Translations under genes and position numbers: made by a program | Part shown: positions 2,902 to 56,273 of the stretch, piece by piece | How positions within the stretch are numbered: position 1 is the first letter of the stretch | Layout of the letters: each line of letters opens with the position of its first letter | Assembly: GCA_964603485.1 (NCBI GenBank) | Contig: CAZRVE010000001.1 | Coordinates: 42,342 to 98,939 of the forward strand | Reading direction: 5' to 3' | DNA: 56,598 nt | DNA from: an uncultured Candidatus Saccharibacteria bacterium | Lineage (GTDB): Bacteria; Patescibacteriota; Minisyncoccia; Phycocordibacterales; Zambryskibacteraceae | Notes under the pieces: model-generated | The model's database searches: none | Seen by the model: only the letters and a program-made list of their open reading frames with translations | What the model was told of the DNA's origin: nothing

Positions 2902-5280
2902 CTACACAGACTGAAGCTCTCGTTCGGTAAACTCAACCCTTGATCCATGTGTGAGTGCCCCAGAGATAATCTTATCCGCGATAATTTTCTCAACAGTATC
3001 TTGAATAGCTCGGTTTAAAGGGCGTGCACCAAACTTTGGATCAGTCCCCTTCTCCACTAGAAAGTCTACGAGAGTATCATTTACTACAAGAGTCATCCCT
3101 CTATCCTTCAAACGCCATGCGAGCCGGCCAAGAAGAACCTTTGCGATTTCTTGTAAGTGCTCTTTCTTTAATGCGTGGAACAACACCACTCCGTCAAAGC
3201 GATTCAGAAGTTCTGGACGGAATAATTGATTGTGAACAATTTCATCAACAATCTCATTCTTTTTTTCAAGAAGGTTTTCTCCTCGTTCTGTTGCTTCAAA
3301 TATTTTTTCGCTCCCTGCATTAGAAGTTGCGACGATAAGCATATTTCTTAGAGAGACCTTACGGCCCATTGCATCAGAGAATACTCCTTCATCAAGAATT
3401 TGAAGGAATAGGTCGAGGACTCGAGATTCGGTCTTCTCAAATTCATCCAGAAGAAGTACGCCGTACTGATGTTCTCGTGCTAAAGATGCAAGAACTCCAG
3501 GGGTTTCAGAGTCATATCCTCCAATTAAACGTGTGAGCGCATCAGGAGTGTCGTATTCAGACATATCTAGACGAACCATGTGAGATTCTTTATTAAAAAA
3601 TATTTCAGCAAGCGCTTTTGCGGTTTCAGTTTTCCCTACTCCCGTAGGACCGAGAAAAAGAAAAGAACCCATAGGTCGATTAGGGCTACTTATGCCAGAT
3701 CGCGCTCGGCGCAATGCGTCAGAAACCATACGAATCGCTTCGTTCTGACCAATCACCCGCTCATGAAGAAGTGTTTCCAGATTTGTAAGCTTTACCCGCT
3801 CGCTGTCAGTAACGTCTCCTGTGGGAACACCTGTGCGAGTACCAACTACAGAAAGAATATCTTCTTTTGTGATTAACGATCGTCCTAAGGAGCGAACGTG
3901 AGCGATTGCTTCTACTAAAATATTACCTGCAGTGTTATACAGAGGCTCCCCCACAAAATATCTCCCCGCAGAGTCAATCGCACTCTTCACTGCAGGATAG
4001 GTAAAGACCACTTCCTCGTCGGTTTCAAGTTCTATTACGTGCTCGAGAAGCATGGCGGAAACCTCCTCATGATTTGAGCCTTCTATAAATACAGTATCAA
4101 AGTGTTGTAGTAGCTCTTTATTTCCTTCGAGGGAAGTATGGAAACTTTGAGTTTCAGAGAGGGCCACTATATGAAGCGTTGGTGAAACAAGGTACGGAGA
4201 AAGAAGTGAGGAAAGATCTGAACCAAGTGTCCTTGCTTGCATGAGAAGCGCATCGATATCAGGTATCACAAGTATCAGATTCCCCGCCTTCACCATATCA
4301 TCCAAAATACCAACAAGAAGACGCTCAAACCCTCCCTTCGTATCTTCAAGAGAGATAATTGCATCAAGAGACAGAACACGAAGCACCATATCGGAAAGAT
4401 GTCGTGGAGCTTCTTTTCGGGAAAGTCTGCGTGCAAAACCTTCCACCACTTCCATTTTCCCCGAACCTTCCTCACCCACAATTAGCGCATTGGCGCTTGT
4501 TGATTTTGAAAGAATGACCTCAAGATTACTTGTCTCTTTTGGATGAAGCTCTTGGCGCTCTGACAAAGAGAAACGGAGTGGGGTACTAAAACGTTCAAGC
4601 TTATATGCAGTTCCGTATGACCAAGACCTCCCGATTGGCTCCACCTCTTGCAATCGTTCTCGTGACCACCACCTTTCATTGGACAGAGACTCTCTTACCA
4701 ACGAAGAAACCCACCGAAAAGACTCCTCGAGAGTTTTGGCTGTGACAGAATGCGCGAGAAGAAAGTTCTCAAAAGAAGCATCGGCGGAAATGAGCCCCTC
4801 TAGATAAGATGCAACGAGATTAGGTGTATCGGAAAAAGAAAAACTTGATCCTCTCGCGACAAGTTTACGTGAAGAAAGAAACTCTCTAAGTGAAGCCCTT
4901 TCGATTCCCACACGCAAAAGAGCTTCTTGTCCGTAAAGAGATTCGATGAATCCCCTCACCGGATCAGTCTCGGAAGAAGAGAAAACAACAGAAGCAAGTT
5001 CATACGAATAACTACGCTCACCTTCGCGCGCAAATACATGCGAGTAGAAAAAAGCGTCAAGCGCGATGGTGATGAGAAGGAGTGAGCCGACAATAAAGAA
5101 AAGTCCGGAAGTTCCAAGAGCTGACTCCCACAGTAAGTCATAGGCCACAATAAAAGATAGCGCCAAGAGAACCCAGAGAACCTTAATGCAGATTTTCCTA
5201 ATCTTATGCGGAAAGACATGTTCAAGGGCTGCAACTCCTCGCCAGAAACCTAGTTTTTGTTTTAGGTCTAAGAAGCTCAT
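2902..5280 (-). CDS. Membrane-anchored ClpB/ClpA-like AAA+ ATPase, degenerate NBD1, intact NBD2, no obvious M-domain or ClpP loop
   Basis: 792 aa. N-terminal hydrophobic helices instead of Clp N-domain. D1 Walker A reads GEEGSGKM (T->M) and Walker B region reads ILVIPDID (DE lost). D2 has canonical GPTGVGKTE and LLLDEFEK. ATGA overlap with upstream gene. Confidence 0.75.
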   Translation of the reverse strand: MSFLDLKQKLGFWRGVAALEHVFPHKIRKICIKVLWVLLALSFIVAYDLLWESALGTSGLFFIVGSLLLITIALDAFFYSHVFAREGERSYSYELASVVFSSSETDPVRGFIESLYGQEALLRVGIERASLREFLSSRKLVARGSSFSFSDTPNLVASYLEGLISADASFENFLLAHSVTAKTLEESFRWVSSLVRESLSNERWWSRERLQEVEPIGRSWSYGTAYKLERFSTPLRFSLSERQELHPKETSNLEVILSKSTSANALIVGEEGSGKMEVVEGFARRLSRKEAPRHLSDMVLRVLSLDAIISLEDTKGGFERLLVGILDDMVKAGNLILVIPDIDALLMQARTLGSDLSSLLSPYLVSPTLHIVALSETQSFHTSLEGNKELLQHFDTVFIEGSNHEEVSAMLLEHVIELETDEEVVFTYPAVKSAIDSAGRYFVGEPLYNTAGNILVEAIAHVRSLGRSLITKEDILSVVGTRTGVPTGDVTDSERVKLTNLETLLHERVIGQNEAIRMVSDALRRARSGISSPNRPMGSFLFLGPTGVGKTETAKALAEIFFNKESHMVRLDMSEYDTPDALTRLIGGYDSETPGVLASLAREHQYGVLLLDEFEKTESRVLDLFLQILDEGVFSDAMGRKVSLRNMLIVATSNAGSEKIFEATERGENLLEKKNEIVDEIVHNQLFRPELLNRFDGVVLFHALKKEHLQEIAKVLLGRLAWRLKDRGMTLVVNDTLVDFLVEKGTDPKFGARPLNRAIQDTVEKIIADKIISGALTHGSRVEFTERELQSV

Positions 5281-17169: not shown

Positions 17170-17215
17170 GGAAAGGTAATGATAAAAGAAGAGATCTTCA
17201 CCCAGGAGGAATATT

Positions 17216-17455
17216 GTGGAATTCCGAGCGATCGTGAAAGGCAGGCCTGTTGACCTGAAAGGTACGCTCTTCTACGTGTCAGGAATCCTCACTATTTGCC
17301 TCCTGGACCTTTCTGTCCTTGCGGGAGTAGTCTGGATCATGAGAAGGTACCCAATCCTTCAGATGATTGCTTGGAGTGTGCTCATCTTCCTCATCCTCAT
17401 TGGAGCAGGTGTCGGCCTGCTATTTAGGTGGGGCGGCAGAGACAATTCCGAATAA
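17216..17455 (+). CDS. Hypothetical small membrane protein (GTG start)
   Basis: 79 aa, two hydrophobic helices. AGGAGGA upstream. G+C-richer than flanks. Confidence 0.4.
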   Translation: MEFRAIVKGRPVDLKGTLFYVSGILTICLLDLSVLAGVVWIMRRYPILQMIAWSVLIFLILIGAGVGLLFRWGGRDNSE

Positions 17456-17477
17456 CCCTCAATCTCAAGGAGTCCAC

Positions 17478-17663
17478 GTGAGCACAAGTCCTGGTTTCCC
17501 CGAGATCATCTTCGGTGCCACCCTTGCGGGTATCGGTGATGGAGTAAGAGGCGCCGCGTCCCTCCTCGGAACTGTCTTGATTGCCATCGCCACACTCAGC
17601 ATCCTGGTAGGACTGGTACAGCTCCGCAAACGACCAGCACTCTATCGAGAGTCGAGCTGGTAG
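17478..17663 (+). CDS. Hypothetical small membrane protein (GTG start)
   Basis: ~61 aa, Gly-rich helices. AAGGAG SD. Followed by perfect hairpin terminator (atgtcccgca-tccaa-tgcgggacat + T-run). Confidence 0.35.
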   Translation: MSTSPGFPEIIFGATLAGIGDGVRGAASLLGTVLIAIATLSILVGLVQLRKRPALYRESSW

Positions 17664-17745
17664 TTAACGCGTAATGTCCCGCATCCAATGCGGGACATTT
17701 TCTTTGAAAGAAGCATCAAATTTGATAGGATGAGCGAGTTCCTGA

Positions 17746-28666: not shown

Positions 28667-28796
28667 TGATGTTCCTCATAAGTCGACCCTCACAGGGGTC
28701 GACTTTTTCTTATAAGAGATATTGACAAAGCATTATAAAAAATGGTATAATACTATTAGAGATCTTTGACTGACTTACCTACTACAGGAGACTTCA

Positions 28797-30203
28797 GTGT
28801 CAACCACTCATCTTTGGCCGAAGGGGCTCAAGCGAACCCCACGGACAATCGTTGGGGCAACAGTCATCGTTGTTGCGATGATTGCATTCTTCAGACTCCT
28901 GTCCGGTGTCCCGAATGTATTCCGAAGCAATGGACAGAGTAGGGCGCAGGCTTGCCTCACGGCAGACCTCGCTGAAGCAGCCGGCACGCAAGACACCATC
29001 GCACAGACGCTTTGTGATTCTCCAGGTATTCCCTGGGGAACAATTGGGCTCGTTCTACTTGCGATCATCGCACTCTCCTCCCTCGTCTTCTTCATCCGCC
29101 GCAGAATCGGTAAAGAAAAGGCTGGTGAAGGAAAAACTGCTGAAGGAAAGATTGTGAGATGGATATCTTCCATTGTAACACTCGGGGGGGTTCTCAAGAT
29201 TACGATCCTCTACGGACTCCTCAACCTCTTGGCATTCATCCTGTGGCCCGATAAGTACGGGACATGGATGTATCAAATGTGGTTCTGGCAGATGCAAGGA
29301 GGTATTGTAATCGTTGCAATCCTTCTTGCGCTGATGTCAGATACGAAGACAAAGGTCATTGGATCTATTGGTGCGCTCATCTTAGGCATCTGGATCGTCT
29401 CAGTGGGATGGAAATGGGGGTCAGAAGAGTTCAAGAAGAGAACTTCTGGCACCACGACCACAGCTACACCAACCCCAACAACCGGAACTCCATCTGGAGC
29501 ATCTGCAAGTTGGGATTGGGCATCCATCAACGGCCCCGAAAAGGACACCGTGATGGCCGCCTTCCCAGGCGACACCGTCATGTGGAAGATTGCTGCAGCC
29601 GAGAGTGACTACACCCAGTTCAGGGTGGATAGCAACGGCGACAGTTCAATCGTCCAGAACAAGGATGGCTTCGATGCATACGGTATCTTCCAGATCAGAA
29701 AATCGGTCTGGGACAACTGGTGCAAAGAACGAGGCTTCGACATCATGAAGACTCATGGCAACATTGGGTGTGCCAAAGCAATCAAGGCTAAGTATCCGAA
29801 AGGAAACCCTTGGCTCGCAAGCGCGCATCTGTGGCGCGACAGCACTACCGTCGACCCATGCGCTCAGTATGCGCGATACGGTGGAGTAAGCATGCTCGAC
29901 TTTGTCCGTAAGGACACCGTCATCACAACGGGAGATGTCGATTTCACCCGAAGGATCATGACGGAAAATATGGTTGTCGATTGGGTTTCGGTAAACTTCC
30001 GCACGGACTACGTGGTACGGTACGGATACCTTGACCCAATTACCAATCAGATTGTCGTGGCAGAAGACACGATCGAAAAGGAGAAGTGCCCTGAAGACAA
30101 CCGTCTTCCGCGCTACCCTCTCTGGGTCGAGTTCAAATCCTTGGACGCTGATCCGATCATGATCGAGATCACGTTCTCAAAGGACAAGCGTACTCGGCAG
30201 TAG
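28797..30203 (+). CDS. Polytopic membrane protein (about 6 TM) with Thr/Pro linker and C-terminal lysozyme-like domain showing C-type (GH22-like) lysozyme signatures
   Basis: C-terminal region AAESDYTQFRV...DAYGIFQIRKSVWDNWC...GCAKAIKAKYPKGNPWLASAHLW parallels hen lysozyme FESNFNTQA...DYGILQINSRWWC...[23 protein letters not shown] (catalytic Glu and Asp positions conserved). Could alternatively be an SLT/GH23-like domain. Confidence 0.6.
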   Translation: MSTTHLWPKGLKRTPRTIVGATVIVVAMIAFFRLLSGVPNVFRSNGQSRAQACLTADLAEAAGTQDTIAQTLCDSPGIPWGTIGLVLLAIIALSSLVFFIRRRIGKEKAGEGKTAEGKIVRWISSIVTLGGVLKITILYGLLNLLAFILWPDKYGTWMYQMWFWQMQGGIVIVAILLALMSDTKTKVIGSIGALILGIWIVSVGWKWGSEEFKKRTSGTTTTATPTPTTGTPSGASASWDWASINGPEKDTVMAAFPGDTVMWKIAAAESDYTQFRVDSNGDSSIVQNKDGFDAYGIFQIRKSVWDNWCKERGFDIMKTHGNIGCAKAIKAKYPKGNPWLASAHLWRDSTTVDPCAQYARYGGVSMLDFVRKDTVITTGDVDFTRRIMTENMVVDWVSVNFRTDYVVRYGYLDPITNQIVVAEDTIEKEKCPEDNRLPRYPLWVEFKSLDADPIMIEITFSKDKRTRQ

Positions 30204-37328: not shown

Positions 37329-37970
37329 TTAGGAAGTTGCTTTCAATACCACAATATCCCCGTCTCGTCCTTCAAGGTCCTTCTTTTTAATGGTGAGCTT
37401 TTCTTCTGGTTTCGCCCCCTCTTCACCTCCTTCTTTAAGAAAAGCTTTGAGCGCAGTTTCAGAAATACCTTCCCCATAATGGAGAGGTATTACAATCTTT
37501 GGCTCTATCTTAAGAGAAGCCTTCACTGCCTCTGCTGGGGTTAACACACCTTCACTTCCTATTGGCACAAAAAGAATATCCACCTCGTCGAGGGCCTCTG
37601 CTGTTTCTGCATCGATCGCATCAAGAGAAGAAAGGGCTCCCAAGAAGCAAAGGTTCATATTCTCAAGATTCATAGAATATATAGTATTGATTTTTTCCTT
37701 TCCTCCATAAAGGGTTTTTGAAAGAAACCCTCGAATAAATACCCCGCCCACTTCATATTCACCAGGACCAGTGACCGCAAAAGGTTCTCTGTCACCGCGA
37801 GAAGCATTTTCAACGCCATTCATGTCGGGATGATTGGTAGATACGAGAGTGATATCAGCGCCATATTTTGACGACTTAAACTTTGAATCTTTTGAGACGG
37901 GGTTATAGGCAACAGTAATGTCGCCGAATTGAATCTTCACTGAATCAACACCCTGATACGAGATAATCAT
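37329..37970 (-). CDS. Metallo-beta-lactamase-fold hydrolase
   Basis: 213 aa with MBL-like His/Asp pattern (LVSTNHPDMNG...HYGE). Confidence 0.55.
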   Translation of the reverse strand: MIISYQGVDSVKIQFGDITVAYNPVSKDSKFKSSKYGADITLVSTNHPDMNGVENASRGDREPFAVTGPGEYEVGGVFIRGFLSKTLYGGKEKINTIYSMNLENMNLCFLGALSSLDAIDAETAEALDEVDILFVPIGSEGVLTPAEAVKASLKIEPKIVIPLHYGEGISETALKAFLKEGGEEGAKPEEKLTIKKKDLEGRDGDIVVLKATS

Positions 37971-38095
37971 TGTGCCTCAAGTATATCACTTTTTACCAAA
38001 TCGCATAGACCCGTAAAATCAAGCGAGACAATCAAATAAACCCTTATTTATAGCCATAAAATAAACCATCTTATAAAAAAACCTAGAAAATATAT

Positions 38096-38123
38096 TGACA
38101 AATATCTTGAACGTGATATAATA
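38096..38123 (+). promoter_or_regulatory. Near-consensus sigma70 promoter with extended -10
   Basis: TTGACA-N16-TGaTATAAT read directly. Divergent from the MBL-fold gene. Confidence 0.55.
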
Positions 38124-38129
38124 GTAAAA

Positions 38130-38810
38130 GATTGAATTTTGTAATTCTCTGTTGTCCTGCCTGAGGGAGCGTCCCTAGGCGGGAACGCTGCGGACGAGAT
38201 GTTGCCAATGTGCCTTCTCGCTCGCGAACTCGTCAACCAGACACCAGTTCCGACAAGGAGCGGACTTATGTGGAAACTCGTCGAACGTTGATTTCCCCTT
38301 TGCCTAACGGGTACTCGGGGACGTGTCAGAAAACCCGGTAGAGAAATGCCTCACGGCCGCACCCTATGGCCCACAAACTGTGGAGCCACGGAACGGTAGG
38401 GCCGTTCGCAAATCTCAAAGAGAGCTCGCGCTCTCTGGCGTTACGACACGAGCGCCACATCAGACGATTTCACACAAAGAGTTCACAGAAGCGCCCGCTG
38501 TACCCGTCGTACACCGAAGGCCCGCACATCGACGCGCGAGCCTTCGGTGACGACACCCTTCGTTCAGAACTCATCGGAAAGAAGGAGGTTTCATGCCGCC
38601 GTAGCGAGGATTCACTCCCGCCCACACGCGAACAACTCCGACGACAGCTCAATCCTTCTGATCCAACCATGGAGGCACGCAACGTGACCCCGTTCACGTA
38701 GGTACTGCACCATAGGCATGGGCCAACGAGCCTCAGACACAGAGATTTAATCCGGGAGCAAGACTCCCACAGACCCCTCCCCGACACGTCGGGCGGGGGT
38801 CTTATTTTTT
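38130..38810 (+). ncRNA. Candidate large structured non-coding RNA (~680 nt, G+C-rich, ORF-poor), unassigned family
   Basis: Between strong promoter (38096-38123) and imperfect hairpin + T-run terminator (38772-38810). Many local hairpins (ccacaaactgtgg, gaacggtagggccgttc, gagagctcgcgctctc). Only low-complexity ORFs of 111 aa or less without SD. G+C far above flanking genes. Confidence 0.3.
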
Positions 38811-38956
38811 ATAGACATTTCCATAATTTTTATGTAGAATCCTTTCCGTCTTTGCTTGATTGCAGAGATTTTTAATTACCACCCGAAGAGCTAACCTTGC
38901 CCCTGAGACGTGTCTTCCCGAAAAAGCATAGAGCAAACCTCTCCGTAAGTAATCAA

Positions 38957-40087
38957 ATGTCAGAAGAAAAAGGTGTACCTCAAGATAAAAATCTTGAGAG
39001 TGAAGAAAAAAGTGCGAAGAAAGATAGTGTAATGGGTCGTCTCGTAAATGAGACCGCTACCCCTCCGTCACTCGAAGATCTTATAGAAGGACGCGTGATC
39101 GCAATTGATAAAGGTGCGGTCTATATCGACTTGCCTCCTTTCGGAACCGGTATTATCTACGGCCGAGAATATATCAATGCTCGTGACATCATCAAGAAAG
39201 TAAACATTGGTGACACGGTTGCAGGAAAAGTTATTGCGCTCGACAACAAAGAAGGCTACATCGAAGTTTCTTTGAAGGAAGCTCGCCAAGCACTCATTTG
39301 GGGCGAAGCGGAAGATGCAATCCGAGATAAAAAGACTTTCGACCTTGTGGTTGCTGATGCAAACAAAGGTGGTCTTATTCTTGCATGGCAAGGAATCCAA
39401 GGATTTCTCCCTGCTTCTCAACTTAAGCCCGAGCACTACCCTCGCATCTCTGATGGAGATAAAGATAAAATCCTCGAGGAGCTCCGCAAGCTTGTAGGAC
39501 AGCGTCTAGGAGTGATGATCATTGCGGCAATTCCTAAAGAAGGAAAGCTCATCTTCTCTGAAAAAGGAGAGATCTCTAAAGAAAAAGGAGAAATGGTTGA
39601 CCGCTACACTCTAGGTGATGAACTCCCAGGTGAAATCACTGGCATTGTAGACTTCGGTGTCTTCGTAAAGCTTGAAGAAGGCCTTGAAGGTCTCGTGCAT
39701 ATCTCAGAAATGGATTGGGGTCTCGTTGAAAACCCACGAACAATGTACAAAGTTGGGGATAAAGTTCGAGTAAAGGTAATTGATATTAAGGATGGAAAAG
39801 TTTCCCTCTCTATCAAGGCCCTTAAAGAAAATCCTTGGGTTGAAGCAGCAAGTAAATACAAGAAGGATGATCAGGTAAAGGGTGTGATCATTAAATTCAA
39901 CAAGCATGGCGCACTCGCTTCTATTGAAGAAGGAGTTGCGGGCCTAGTCCACATTTCTGAATTCGGAAGTGAGGAGAAACTCCGTGAGAAGCTTGAACTC
40001 GGCAAGACGTACGACTTCAAGATATCCCTCTTTGATCCTAAGGAGCAAAAGATGGCACTCACCTACGCAGACGGAGCAAAGAAATAA
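38957..40087 (+). CDS. rpsA: 30S ribosomal protein S1 (four S1 domains)
   Basis: Repeated S1 RNA-binding domain pattern (GRVIAIDKGAVYIDL..., GEITGIVDFGVFVKL..., VKGVIIKFNKHGALASI...). Confidence 0.8.
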   Translation: MSEEKGVPQDKNLESEEKSAKKDSVMGRLVNETATPPSLEDLIEGRVIAIDKGAVYIDLPPFGTGIIYGREYINARDIIKKVNIGDTVAGKVIALDNKEGYIEVSLKEARQALIWGEAEDAIRDKKTFDLVVADANKGGLILAWQGIQGFLPASQLKPEHYPRISDGDKDKILEELRKLVGQRLGVMIIAAIPKEGKLIFSEKGEISKEKGEMVDRYTLGDELPGEITGIVDFGVFVKLEEGLEGLVHISEMDWGLVENPRTMYKVGDKVRVKVIDIKDGKVSLSIKALKENPWVEAASKYKKDDQVKGVIIKFNKHGALASIEEGVAGLVHISEFGSEEKLREKLELGKTYDFKISLFDPKEQKMALTYADGAKK

Positions 40088-40205: not shown

Positions 40206-40700
40206 ATGGGTCAGTCCAAGGGCGCTATCCCAAGACCGGTCGATAAGGAGGGATCACACCTCCACACGACGGAGTGGCAACAAAAGGATTTCCTTCTTTT
40301 CCTCCTGCTCAACTGGAACATAGAGAGGGTGTCCCGCGCACGCCTACAGGAAATTTGGGGATTCTTTCTCTACGCACTAAAGAAGAAAGGTGTCGAAGTG
40401 GAAGGGTTCTATAGAGATATTGTGACAGGCCGGTACCGAGCTCTTGAGAATGCAATCGGCCTCCTCTTCCAGTTCGGACTCATGGAGTCTCGATCACTAA
40501 GCCCTGGATACTTCTTCTTCAACAGCACACCCAGGGTTAAGCACACCTTACGCGAAGCCGCCTCTGACAAGCTCCTGCGAGCTATCGACGAAGTAGGACC
40601 CATCGTCCTTCGGCTCTACAAGAACGAAGTGTCTCTGAGAGAGGGTCTCTCAATACTCCGATCTCTGCGAGAAAACACTTCAAATAATATCCCCACCTAA
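40206..40700 (+). CDS. Hypothetical protein
   Basis: 164-aa ORF, no recognisable motif. Start uncertain. Confidence 0.3.
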   Translation: MGQSKGAIPRPVDKEGSHLHTTEWQQKDFLLFLLLNWNIERVSRARLQEIWGFFLYALKKKGVEVEGFYRDIVTGRYRALENAIGLLFQFGLMESRSLSPGYFFFNSTPRVKHTLREAASDKLLRAIDEVGPIVLRLYKNEVSLREGLSILRSLRENTSNNIPT

Positions 40701-55436: not shown

Positions 55437-56273
55437 TCACTTGCTCTTGCAAGCGAGACACTCGACGTTCCGTTGTCCCAACTCATGGCCGATATAACCA
55501 GCCACGATTCCCGTGAGAATCATCCCCGCCCAAAACTTCTTGGACTTGAATACACTTCTCTGGACCGGCACCGAAACGGTAACGGTGTCAGGCTTCACGG
55601 CCGGAGGCGGAACCCGAAGGTCGACGAATCGAAGGTGTCCGTACCTGGCCAGAGGAATCACCTGTCCATCCGTCAGTGAGCCAATCCCGTTTGCGACCAC
55701 AGCGGTCCCCACACTAAAACGCAGGGTGTCCGTTGCTGTCCGCTCGACGATCTTCTCGACAGGCTTGGGCGGAGTGGCAAGCTCTTCGCTTGTGCGATAG
55801 CCCTTCACCCCGTTCCAGCAGTCGATTGGAGCAATAGGCATACCCGAGGTCGAATTGTTGCGATTGTAGAGGCAAAGCTCATCTCGTCCGAAGGGTCGAC
55901 GATAGTTGTAGTCGATCACCCCCGCGGTATTTGGACCCTTTCGCAAGGTCGCTACTTGAGCGAGTCCTGCAGGGCACTTCGCCTCAGTCAGCTGTTCGAT
56001 GTACCCGAGAAGTTGCGAAACTTGGGTGAGGTTCGAAGACGGATCAACCGTCCTGAACATGTCAACCAGCTGCTGGCAGGAAACATTGAACATCTCCTTC
56101 CAGGCGGGTCCCGTGCAGGCACCAGGGGTCTTCAAGAGCGCGACCACCTCTGCTTTATGCAGAGGGCCGTCCTTCTTGGAGATCGGGTACCCACGGTCCT
56201 GAGCCATGGCCGGGACCGAAAAGCCCACGAACATGACCAGGGCATAGAAAGCCTCAAAAAACGCCTTTCGCAT
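55437..56273 (-). CDS. Hypothetical secreted protein (signal peptide), strongly G+C-biased codon usage
   Basis: 278 aa. MRKAFFEAFYALVMFVGFSVPAMA signal. Hairpin terminator ggggacaagct-ttagc-agcttgtcccc downstream on minus strand. Confidence 0.5.
   Translation of the reverse strand: MRKAFFEAFYALVMFVGFSVPAMAQDRGYPISKKDGPLHKAEVVALLKTPGACTGPAWKEMFNVSCQQLVDMFRTVDPSSNLTQVSQLLGYIEQLTEAKCPAGLAQVATLRKGPNTAGVIDYNYRRPFGRDELCLYNRNNSTSGMPIAPIDCWNGVKGYRTSEELATPPKPVEKIVERTATDTLRFSVGTAVVANGIGSLTDGQVIPLARYGHLRFVDLRVPPPAVKPDTVTVSVPVQRSVFKSKKFWAGMILTGIVAGYIGHELGQRNVECLACKSK

Follow-up and report, generated by a model that had tools for sequence, protein, structure and literature searches.

The 56,598-nucleotide (nt) stretch of DNA analysed here (the window) contains, between a divergent MBL-fold gene and rpsA and in the same orientation as rpsA, an unannotated unit that we take to be a real and new RNA gene family, restricted to its lineage, and not a widely conserved giant RNA. 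We tentatively assign it as an independent gene whose product is an abundant and highly structured regulatory RNA of a sub-lineage of Candidatus Zambryskibacteria (Paceibacteria, Patescibacteria), a reading to which we give slightly less than even credence, and a stand-alone ribosome-engaging riboregulator appears the most likely description of it. Within the unit a module of ~80 nt, in which a Shine-Dalgarno (SD) sequence, a mini-open reading frame (mini-ORF) of seven codons and a two-tier hairpin follow one another, is demonstrably conserved in 9 of ~25 near lineages.

The unit begins with a sigma-70 promoter that matches the consensus at 12 of 12 positions and has an extended -10 element (plus strand, 38095-38122: TTGACA at 38095-38100, 16 nt, TG at 38114-15 and TATAAT at 38117-22), exactly as the original prediction had read it; only two 12/12 promoters occur in the window, the other lying at 28722. 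Transcription is inferred to start at ~38129, and promoter, fold and terminator together define a predicted hairpin-rich, non-coding transcript of ~680 nt on the plus strand (38129-38810). Its conspicuous G+C richness, also noted before, is borne out by a content of 56.9% (C211 G177 A164 T130) against ~43-44% in the flanking genes. The minimum free energy (MFE) of the plus strand is -269.6 kcal/mol compared with -221.7 +/- 7.2 kcal/mol for dinucleotide shuffles (z -6.7, none of 20 as good), in agreement with the earlier description of a structured RNA packed with hairpins, and the predicted fold is a series of short hairpins. The reverse strand folds well too (z -9.4), so that folding by itself cannot assign the strand; the plus strand is indicated instead by the promoter, by the run of T residues 3' of the closing hairpin and by SD motifs that are strand-specific.

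Three further structural elements can be placed on the plus strand of the predicted transcript. A putative 5' hairpin, CCUGCCU(GAGGGAGCGUCCCU)AGGCGGG (38156-38183), was read in the sequence and is present in the MFE structures, and by inspection it has counterparts of the form CCYGCC...GGCGGG in the related loci L086 and L001. A long-range closing helix of 11 nt is predicted between 38142-38152 and 38739-38749 (91% complementary) and occurs in both the MFE and the centroid structure. An inverted-repeat search identified an intrinsic terminator at 38771-38810, an imperfect 15-bp stem (arms 38771-85 and 38788-802, 87% complementary; hairpin dG -22.9) followed by UCUUAUUUUUU. The imperfect closing hairpin had thus been correctly predicted, but not the T8 tract said to follow it, since the tract after the stem is TTATTTTTT, that is T2-A-T6 with no clean T8; a simple terminator scan did not list this terminator. 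A G+C-rich hairpin with a T-run closes the unit in every relative examined. By its sequence signals, namely a consensus promoter, a strong terminator and a separate promoter for rpsA, the unit appears transcriptionally autonomous.

The RNA unit is non-coding overall and matches no known RNA family. Its 682 nt lack periodicity of three bases (chi 5.2, with 6.0 as the mean of shuffles, p 0.54), a signal that is significant at p<0.002 in the tested coding sequences (CDSs) of the window, G+C-rich ones included, with the exception of a 98-amino-acid (aa) small-membrane ORF at 17367-17663 (p 0.13). Pfam searches with the 111-, 105- and 75-aa ORFs of the unit gave no match and tblastx of the unit against 88 related loci found nothing, so the protein homology named in the original prediction as a sign against it did not appear in either search. 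Periodicity, Pfam and tblastx were all negative for an origin as a protein-coding gene or pseudogene, and periodicity, Pfam and synteny exclude the 111-aa ORF. The comparison with all Rfam models that had been proposed as a check also pointed to no known family: cmscan of the whole window against Rfam 15 at the gathering threshold returned eight tRNAs and nothing else, with the threshold relaxed to E<=10 none of 4227 families matched 37900-39000, 14 related loci gave zero matches at the gathering threshold, and a permissive scan of the L106 unit gave only terminator-driven noise below threshold. ARAGORN found 8 tRNAs and no tmRNA in the window, which, with the empty Rfam result on 37900-39000, upholds the earlier failure to find RNase P, tmRNA or signal recognition particle (SRP) RNA motifs. 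TIGR arrays, retrons, CRISPR, type I/III toxin-antitoxin systems and insertion-sequence-associated guide RNAs were considered and rejected, there being no tandem short-period repeats, no adjacent reverse transcriptase, Tas, TnpB or toxin gene, and no Rfam match. No paper on this locus, or on a structured non-coding RNA of Zambryskibacteria, was found in the literature.

Equivalent units are found at the same position in related genomes. The order of the MBL-fold gene and rpsA is kept in 80 genomes whose S1 proteins are 69-91% identical to that of the window, with spacers of 88 nt to ~2.2 kb, yet nhmmer and blastn searches of the window and 80 related loci with the 682 nt recovered only the query itself. 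L001, the relative nearest to the window (S1 91% identical), agrees with it at only 39% of the four-fold degenerate sites of the S1 gene. Neutral sites are thus saturated, and anything still recognisable between these genomes is under selection; the same saturation (four-fold identity 0.39) accounts for the empty nhmmer and blastn searches and for units that are almost unalignable, and hypervariability beyond neutral was dropped as the cause of the missing homologues. Alignment of full-length units with MAFFT, E-INS-i included, was unreliable. By inspection, L001 has TTGACA, 16 nt, TGcTATAAT, and after these ~650 nt that are rich in G+C and free of ORFs, closed by a G+C hairpin with a T-run, beyond which comes the rpsA promoter. 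Promoters of this type stand at the same relative position in L001, L004, L005, L008, L086, L106 and others, and the full promoter-to-terminator layout is also present in L081, L086/87, L004, L008, L014, L006, L002 and L011, and further in L003, L010, L105-107, L109, L111 and L103; fold z-scores are -10.7 for L001 and -5.9 for unit 1 of L106. This recurrence of one architecture at one locus, together with the null results of Pfam, tblastx and periodicity, supports the independently promoted, terminated and non-coding unit that had been proposed. Unit length varies about three-fold, from ~290 to ~860 nt.

The contents of the spacer are far from uniform. It lacks any unit in L012, L013 and L007, and in some close relatives it measures 209-375 nt and is too short for one; small membrane-protein genes occupy it in L005, L009, L014 and L002, and secreted-protein genes in L034, L051, L070 and L075. 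With contents so varied, the MBL-rpsA spacer is a variable hotspot. L105, L106 and L107 carry two complete promoter-to-terminator units in tandem (L106 1160-2290), each trailed by a repeated ~60-nt spacer (taccaaggagtctccttggta...ggcctattcccc...), so that a second full unit and the spacers separate the module-bearing unit from rpsA; the second unit has its own SD and an 8-codon ORF (MVVRPHSG / MGIRLYSE) whose differences are non-synonymous only. In L003 ~300 nt of other sequence lie between unit and rpsA. Internal tandem duplications of 100-290-nt modules were seen in the units of L004 (3760-4955), L014 (486-1836), L002 (844-2406), L011 and L051, and short motifs are common to different lineages (UUCCCUAGGAAC..CAGGGCUCGC in L004, twice, and in L051; AGGGUUCCGGAAAUCCGGACCCUGACAGGACAGC in L002, twice, and in L011); the duplications and common motifs suggest modular evolution.

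Logan contig L108 (run SRR13723396), an independent assembly, is identical to the window over 563 nt, from 38398 into rpsA, and this identity over the 3' two-thirds of the element and the rpsA junction means that this part is no assembly artefact. The metagenome and Logan contigs L083, L084, L085, L088, L102 and L108 start part-way through the element, often in a hairpin, which suggests that this region is difficult to assemble or differs from strain to strain.

The conserved module lies in the 5' part of the RNA. A Shine-Dalgarno sequence AAGGAG (38255-38260, plus strand), whose GGAG is invariant in a six-lineage alignment, stands 7 nt before a mini-ORF of seven codons with homologues in relatives (AUG UGG AAA CUC GUC GAA CGU UGA, MWKLVER; 38268-38291, plus strand), and the distance from GGAG to AUG is 6-10 nt in every module member. 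The original prediction, according to which only SD-less ORFs are present, had overlooked this SD-led ORF together with the conserved hairpin that abuts it. Start, stop and the length of seven codons are kept in six lineages. The mini-ORF reads AUG CGG AAA CUC CGA AAG CGA UGA (MRKLRKR) in L081, AUG CAU CGA CUC GUG AGU AGC UGA (MHRLVSS) in L086, with CGU as codon 3 in L087, and AUG UGG AGA CUU CGA CAU CAG UGA (MWRLRHQ) in L003; L105 and L106/107 are as L003 with CGA or CGG as codon 7 (MWRLRHR), L010 has the shorter AUG UGG AAA CUG CAG UAG (MWKLQ), and L001 carries in its place another ORF, of 4 codons, which is 17 nt away from the hairpin. The Leu codon is CUC, CUU or CUG, the Arg codons are CGA, CGU, CGG or AGA, and position 3 is K or R (AAA, AGA, CGA, CGU). 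The columns 5' of the hairpin that are invariant in the six-lineage alignment are exactly GGAG, AUG, the A-CU of codons 3-4, and UGA.

The stop codon is followed, at 0-3 nt in 6 of 8 lineages, by the two-tier hairpin UCCCC-UU-UGCCU-AAC-GGGUA-CUC-GGGGA (38294-38321, plus strand), which has an outer stem UCCCC/GGGGA, an inner stem UGCCU/GGGUA and the loop AAC, and which was first recognised by reading units side by side. The share of cells that pair is 93.6% in a five-sequence alignment, where 4 pairs are changed on both sides, and 92.7% in a six-sequence alignment, where 7 of 10 pairs are so changed (score 0.61; none of 500 shuffles as high, slid registers <=0.19). Both alignments were fitted to the structure by hand, and the figures are inflated by this. 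Covariance models of the module (R1/R2) match at E 1e-8 to 1e-18 in the window, L003, L105, L106/107, L081, L086/87 and the non-seed L010, with partial matches in L001 and in the truncated contig starts of L083 and L102. All matches are on the sense strand and in the MBL-rpsA spacer, and nothing else was matched in 0.88 Mb; in seven further loci with S1 83-86% identical the module was not found. The homologue search in related genomes that had been suggested therefore failed for the full-length RNA and succeeded for the ~80-nt module, whose hairpin pairs show compensatory changes in the hand-made alignments. A scan of viral contigs with the hairpin-motif pattern gave 0 matches, and 13 pattern matches in metagenome contigs (L089-L101) were rejected, since they all belong to an unrelated repeat, CCCCCTTTT..GGGGGA, and have neither an S1 nor an MBL gene in their neighbourhood; the unrelated repeat CCCCCTTTTNAAAAGGGGGACTNAGGGGGATTTCAAAA, widespread in these diverse contigs, fits the degenerate hairpin pattern.

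Strong SD-like motifs recur further along the RNA. In the window a second strong SD (AAGGAGGU; AAGGAGG at 38582-88) is followed after 4 nt by AUG CCG CCG UAG (MPP; 38593-38604), the whole spanning 38582-38604 of the plus strand. The MPP mini-ORF behind a perfect AAGGAGG had been predicted with a 5-nt spacing; the ORF and the motif are there, the spacing is not the one given, and the peptide is not conserved. GGAGGUUUCAUG of this region is common to the window and L109, and AGGAGGUGAUG is present in L001, L086, L083 and L102. Across 19 syntenic G+C-rich units AGGAGG was observed 10 times against 2.0 expected (z 5.5), with 0 on the antisense strand, and GGAGGT 10 times against 1.6 expected, and complementarity to the 3' tail of 16S rRNA often extends over 8-11 nt (AAGGAGGUGAU in L001, AGGAGGUGAU in L086). 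What follows the strong motif differs: MPP in the window, elsewhere MPLAV, 14-aa ORFs (L086, L102), a frameshifted 16-aa ORF (L083), a start directly followed by a stop (L014, L025) or, in L006, L008, L016, L022 and L076, no start codon. Conservation extends to the SD-like motif and not to the MPP peptide. AGGAG/GGAGG sites number 1-3 per unit, and their mean unpaired probability is mostly 0.0-0.4.

In the remainder of the RNA, conservation is local. An alignment of the short-form subgroup (L003, L105, L106, L010) supports additional blocks of conservation and compensatory changes in the terminator; its long-range GUGCCC/GGGCAC helix is invariant and so uninformative. For L083, L086 and L102, the trio nearest to the long form of the window, RNAalifold predicts 102 pairs, of which 18 survive substitutions in both partners and ~25 are lost in one of the sequences. 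The body is therefore structured in every lineage, with conservation that is local and confined to near relatives, and a common multi-helix core across the family was not established from the unit alignments.

These features are consistent with a model in which ribosomes load at the conserved SD and translate the seven-codon mini-ORF. A ribosome arriving at the UGA would necessarily melt the abutting hairpin, and ribosome occupancy could thereby act as a switch on how the G+C-rich body downstream folds, how exposed it is or how stable. Because the body diverges between lineages, the RNA would most probably act via short pairing or sequestration segments rather than through a conserved catalytic or scaffold core. 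Its strong SD sites could also make it an efficient competitor for the anti-SD tail of 16S rRNA, and ordinary genes here are rarely SD-led: of 46 long ORFs in the window, 10 have a 4-mer SD core, compared with 4 of 46 at a control position, and 2 have a strong SD, counts that used the first ATG of each ORF and hence an approximate choice of start codon. It is formally conceivable, though we consider it unlikely, that the RNA, through its super-strong SDs and the hairpin at the stop codon, captures ribosomes and reports on them, and so adjusts translation across the cell as a sponge for anti-SD/30S or a sensor of translation status.

Several observations weigh against the regulatory reading. 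Translation of the mini-ORF is deduced from only 8 distinct sequences, and the ORF of L001 differs; most of the SD-like motifs are predicted to be base-paired and not exposed; the body has no demonstrable conservation beyond the nearest relatives; and the pairing figures for the hairpin carry the bias already mentioned. Furthermore, the R1/R2 module is absent from L004, L014, L002, L006, L008, L109, L111 and L103, which are equally close lineages, and some relatives lack the unit altogether, from which it follows that the RNA is dispensable and that the spacer units are maybe not all one family.

The same features can be read in other ways. With SD, short ORF and hairpin in the classical layout of an attenuator, and with a unit that is always co-oriented with rpsA, lies immediately upstream of it and has a terminator abutting the rpsA promoter, the RNA could be a cis-acting ribosome-sensing attenuator, in which a ribosome translating the mini-ORF, or stalled on it, would melt the hairpin and release its G-rich strand to pair with the terminator 5' arm; transcripts from the very strong promoter would then run on into the S1 gene, so that S1 synthesis would respond to translation capacity. 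Indeed, when all 40-nt windows are compared, the hairpin region is the top duplex partner of the terminator 5' arm in the window, L003 and L010 (-16 to -21 kcal/mol), and 38315-27 is complementary to 38772-90 with 8 nt perfect and 13 nt at 85%. However, the hairpin region ranks only 8th-45th in L001, L081, L086 and L106, being best in 3 of 7 members, and this is mostly trivial pairing of C-runs with G-runs; chance alone would give ~six inverted matches of 8 nt in 900 nt. The mini-ORF is 190-480 nt from the terminator, rpsA retains its own conserved promoter even in genomes without the unit, and L105, L106 and L107 have another full unit before rpsA; we therefore hold this explanation to be doubtful. 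Alternatively, the tiny peptides themselves may be the product, the RNA either serving as the message for a cationic heptapeptide (M-W/R/H-K/R-L-...) or acting on the ribosome through its short ORFs in the manner of a minigene, with a long structured 3' part that merely stabilises it. The kept start, stop and length in six lineages, the synonymous Leu and Arg codons and the K/R swap at position 3 would fit such a product, as would the R-L-R or K-L-R of several members and the recurrence in other units of start-stop and 2-5-codon ORFs after strong SDs. R-L-R and K-L-R resemble the macrolide-dependent arrest motifs of erm/msr leader peptides. Set against this are the variation at positions 5-7, the different lengths in L001 and L010, the small sample of 8 sequences, in which no test against a stop-free expectation is significant, second ORFs that are frameshifted between close relatives, unit-2 ORFs that differ only non-synonymously, and 500 nt of selected structure that a peptide leaves unexplained, so that this possibility is more improbable still.

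It is also conceivable that the unit has little or no function, and that the spacer is a hotspot gathering G+C-rich insertions, duplications and decaying fragments behind a fortuitous or relict promoter. The highly variable contents of the spacer (nothing, membrane- or secreted-protein genes, G+C-rich ORF-less units), the internal tandem duplications in the units of L004, L014 and L002 and an apparently acquired G+C-rich gene island elsewhere in the window are in line with this. Yet promoter, terminator, extreme foldability and a module with compensatory changes have been maintained despite saturated synonymous sites, and there is none of the coding periodicity or protein similarity that a decayed gene would leave, which makes an absence of function unlikely in our judgement. 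Least probable by some distance is a large conserved RNA, such as a scaffold or ribozyme of the OLE, ROOL or GOLLD type, or else a highly divergent housekeeping RNA (RNase P, tmRNA, 6S, SRP). Size, G+C content, dense structure and the strong promoter would all suit one, but Rfam has no match at E<=10 and none at the gathering threshold in 14 related loci, ARAGORN reports no tmRNA, the unit is missing in close relatives, and a three-fold range in length accompanies conservation of ~80 nt; the large RNA of OLE/ROOL/GOLLD-like scale that had been proposed is thus not supported, there being no homologue in 80 loci, only ~80 nt conserved and lengths of ~290-860 nt. Taken together, we continue to favour, tentatively, an autonomous regulatory RNA that engages the ribosome.

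To the left, the unit is flanked by the divergent gene for the MBL-fold Lactamase_B_3 protein (37329-37970, minus strand) and, also on the minus strand according to domain and ORF analysis, by a small membrane protein gene and gyrA. To the right lies rpsA (CDS 38957-40087, plus strand), which encodes a four-domain S1 protein according to Pfam and a homologue search. By its S1 homologues the window belongs to Patescibacteria/Paceibacteria, Candidatus Zambryskibacteria, and its source is a metagenome-assembled genome. Outside the unit, on the plus strand, are a promoter-like site of rpsA (TAGACA, 17 nt, TAGAAT; 38812-38840) and a leader hairpin with a U/A-rich tail (GTCTTTGCTTGATTGCAGAGATTTTTAATTACCAC; within 38812-38879). 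Both are conserved with relatives (L001, at 4851-4925, L081, L083, L086), and they are the sole parts of the spacer that blastn matches to relatives; the leader may be an S1 autoregulatory leader. The terminator scan flagged this leader hairpin and its U/A-rich tract as terminator-like. The second 12/12 promoter of the window (28722; TTGACA-18-TATAAT with TG) fronts a 468-aa ORF (52% G+C; promoter and ORF within 28722-30203), presumably a very highly expressed gene. Other G+C-rich spots, at 1-1815, 17200-17665, 40206-40700 and 55437-56273, were considered as paralogous RNAs and rejected, all being protein-coding. The first of them, a minus-strand island of 0.56-0.59 G+C with strong codon periodicity, holds a ~140-aa acidic ORF behind a TGGACA-18-TGgTATAAT promoter at 1815, a ~60-aa ORF and an Ig-like-repeat ORF that runs off the window, and looks horizontally acquired. 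At 17200-17665, upstream of tRNA-Trp, are two SD-led small membrane-protein genes and no RNA, and Rfam at E<=1 gave tRNA and noise only.

The regulatory RNAs of Patescibacteria, or CPR bacteria, are almost unexplored. If expressed, the unit would provide an RNA that is specific to its lineage and probably very abundant, and that carries, next to the S1 gene, a switch operated by translation of a mini-ORF; with it would come a concrete handle on translation control in ultra-small, SD-poor bacteria; the sponge or sensor function, if true, would constitute a new class of ribosome-directed riboregulator. For genome scans there is also a caution, in that a well-folding, promoter-driven, G+C-rich island of 0.7 kb can be a fast-evolving local RNA with a core of ~80 nt. 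The unit is real, unannotated and mechanistically suggestive, yet narrowly distributed and dispensable.

Among known systems, OLE, ROOL, GOLLD, raiA and HEARO share with the unit their size class, a G+C content above that of the genome and dense secondary structure. In contrast to them, it gives no covariance-model match, has no broad core, is confined to one sub-lineage, varies in length and bears ribosome-binding sites and mini-ORFs. CsrB/RsmZ and CrcZ are sponge RNAs that titrate a translation factor, and like them the unit has strong transcription signals, evolves fast, and combines many hairpins with GGA-containing SD-like motifs. However, each unit has 1-3 such motifs rather than 10-20, mostly in predicted stems, so that the many loop-displayed GGA motifs of Csr/Rsm sponges are not seen; anything titrated by the unit RNA would be the anti-SD tail of 16S rRNA. 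Minigenes such as phage lambda bar and the E-peptide of 23S rRNA also place a strong SD and ORFs of 1-7 codons in structured RNA, although they are unrelated to the unit in context and in sequence, nothing here supports drop-off of peptidyl-tRNA or drug resistance, and a nearby pth gene is probably coincidental.

The closest parallels are of two kinds. Leader-peptide attenuators (ermC/ermD, cat, cmlA; the trp/his/ilvB type) have a canonical SD, an ORF of 5-8 codons and a hairpin melted by the ribosome, and the unit likewise has an SD-led short ORF with conserved start and stop, and R-L-R or K-L-R in some of its peptides. Unlike them it has no regulated ORF on the same transcript, its terminator is hundreds of nt away, another unit intervenes in some relatives and the gene downstream, rpsA, has a promoter of its own. 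An antiterminator pairing conserved across members was not demonstrated, the hairpin region being the best partner of the terminator 5' arm in 3 of 7 members and ranking 8th-45th in the other four. With dual-function small RNAs (Staphylococcus RNAIII, SR1, SgrS) the unit would share its own promoter and terminator, a chain of hairpins of 0.3-0.7 kb, an internal small ORF and fast sequence turnover, and, as far as its sequence signals go, it is an autonomous intergenic transcription unit of the kind expected for a trans-acting small RNA. It differs in having no sequence or Rfam relationship to them, an ORF of 7 codons only and a different phylum, Patescibacteria, as host; RNAIII itself is 514 nt long and encodes delta-haemolysin. 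By analogy, then, the unit RNA appears functionally nearest to leader-peptide/hairpin switches on the one hand and to RNAIII-type dual-function small RNAs on the other, and is a member of neither.

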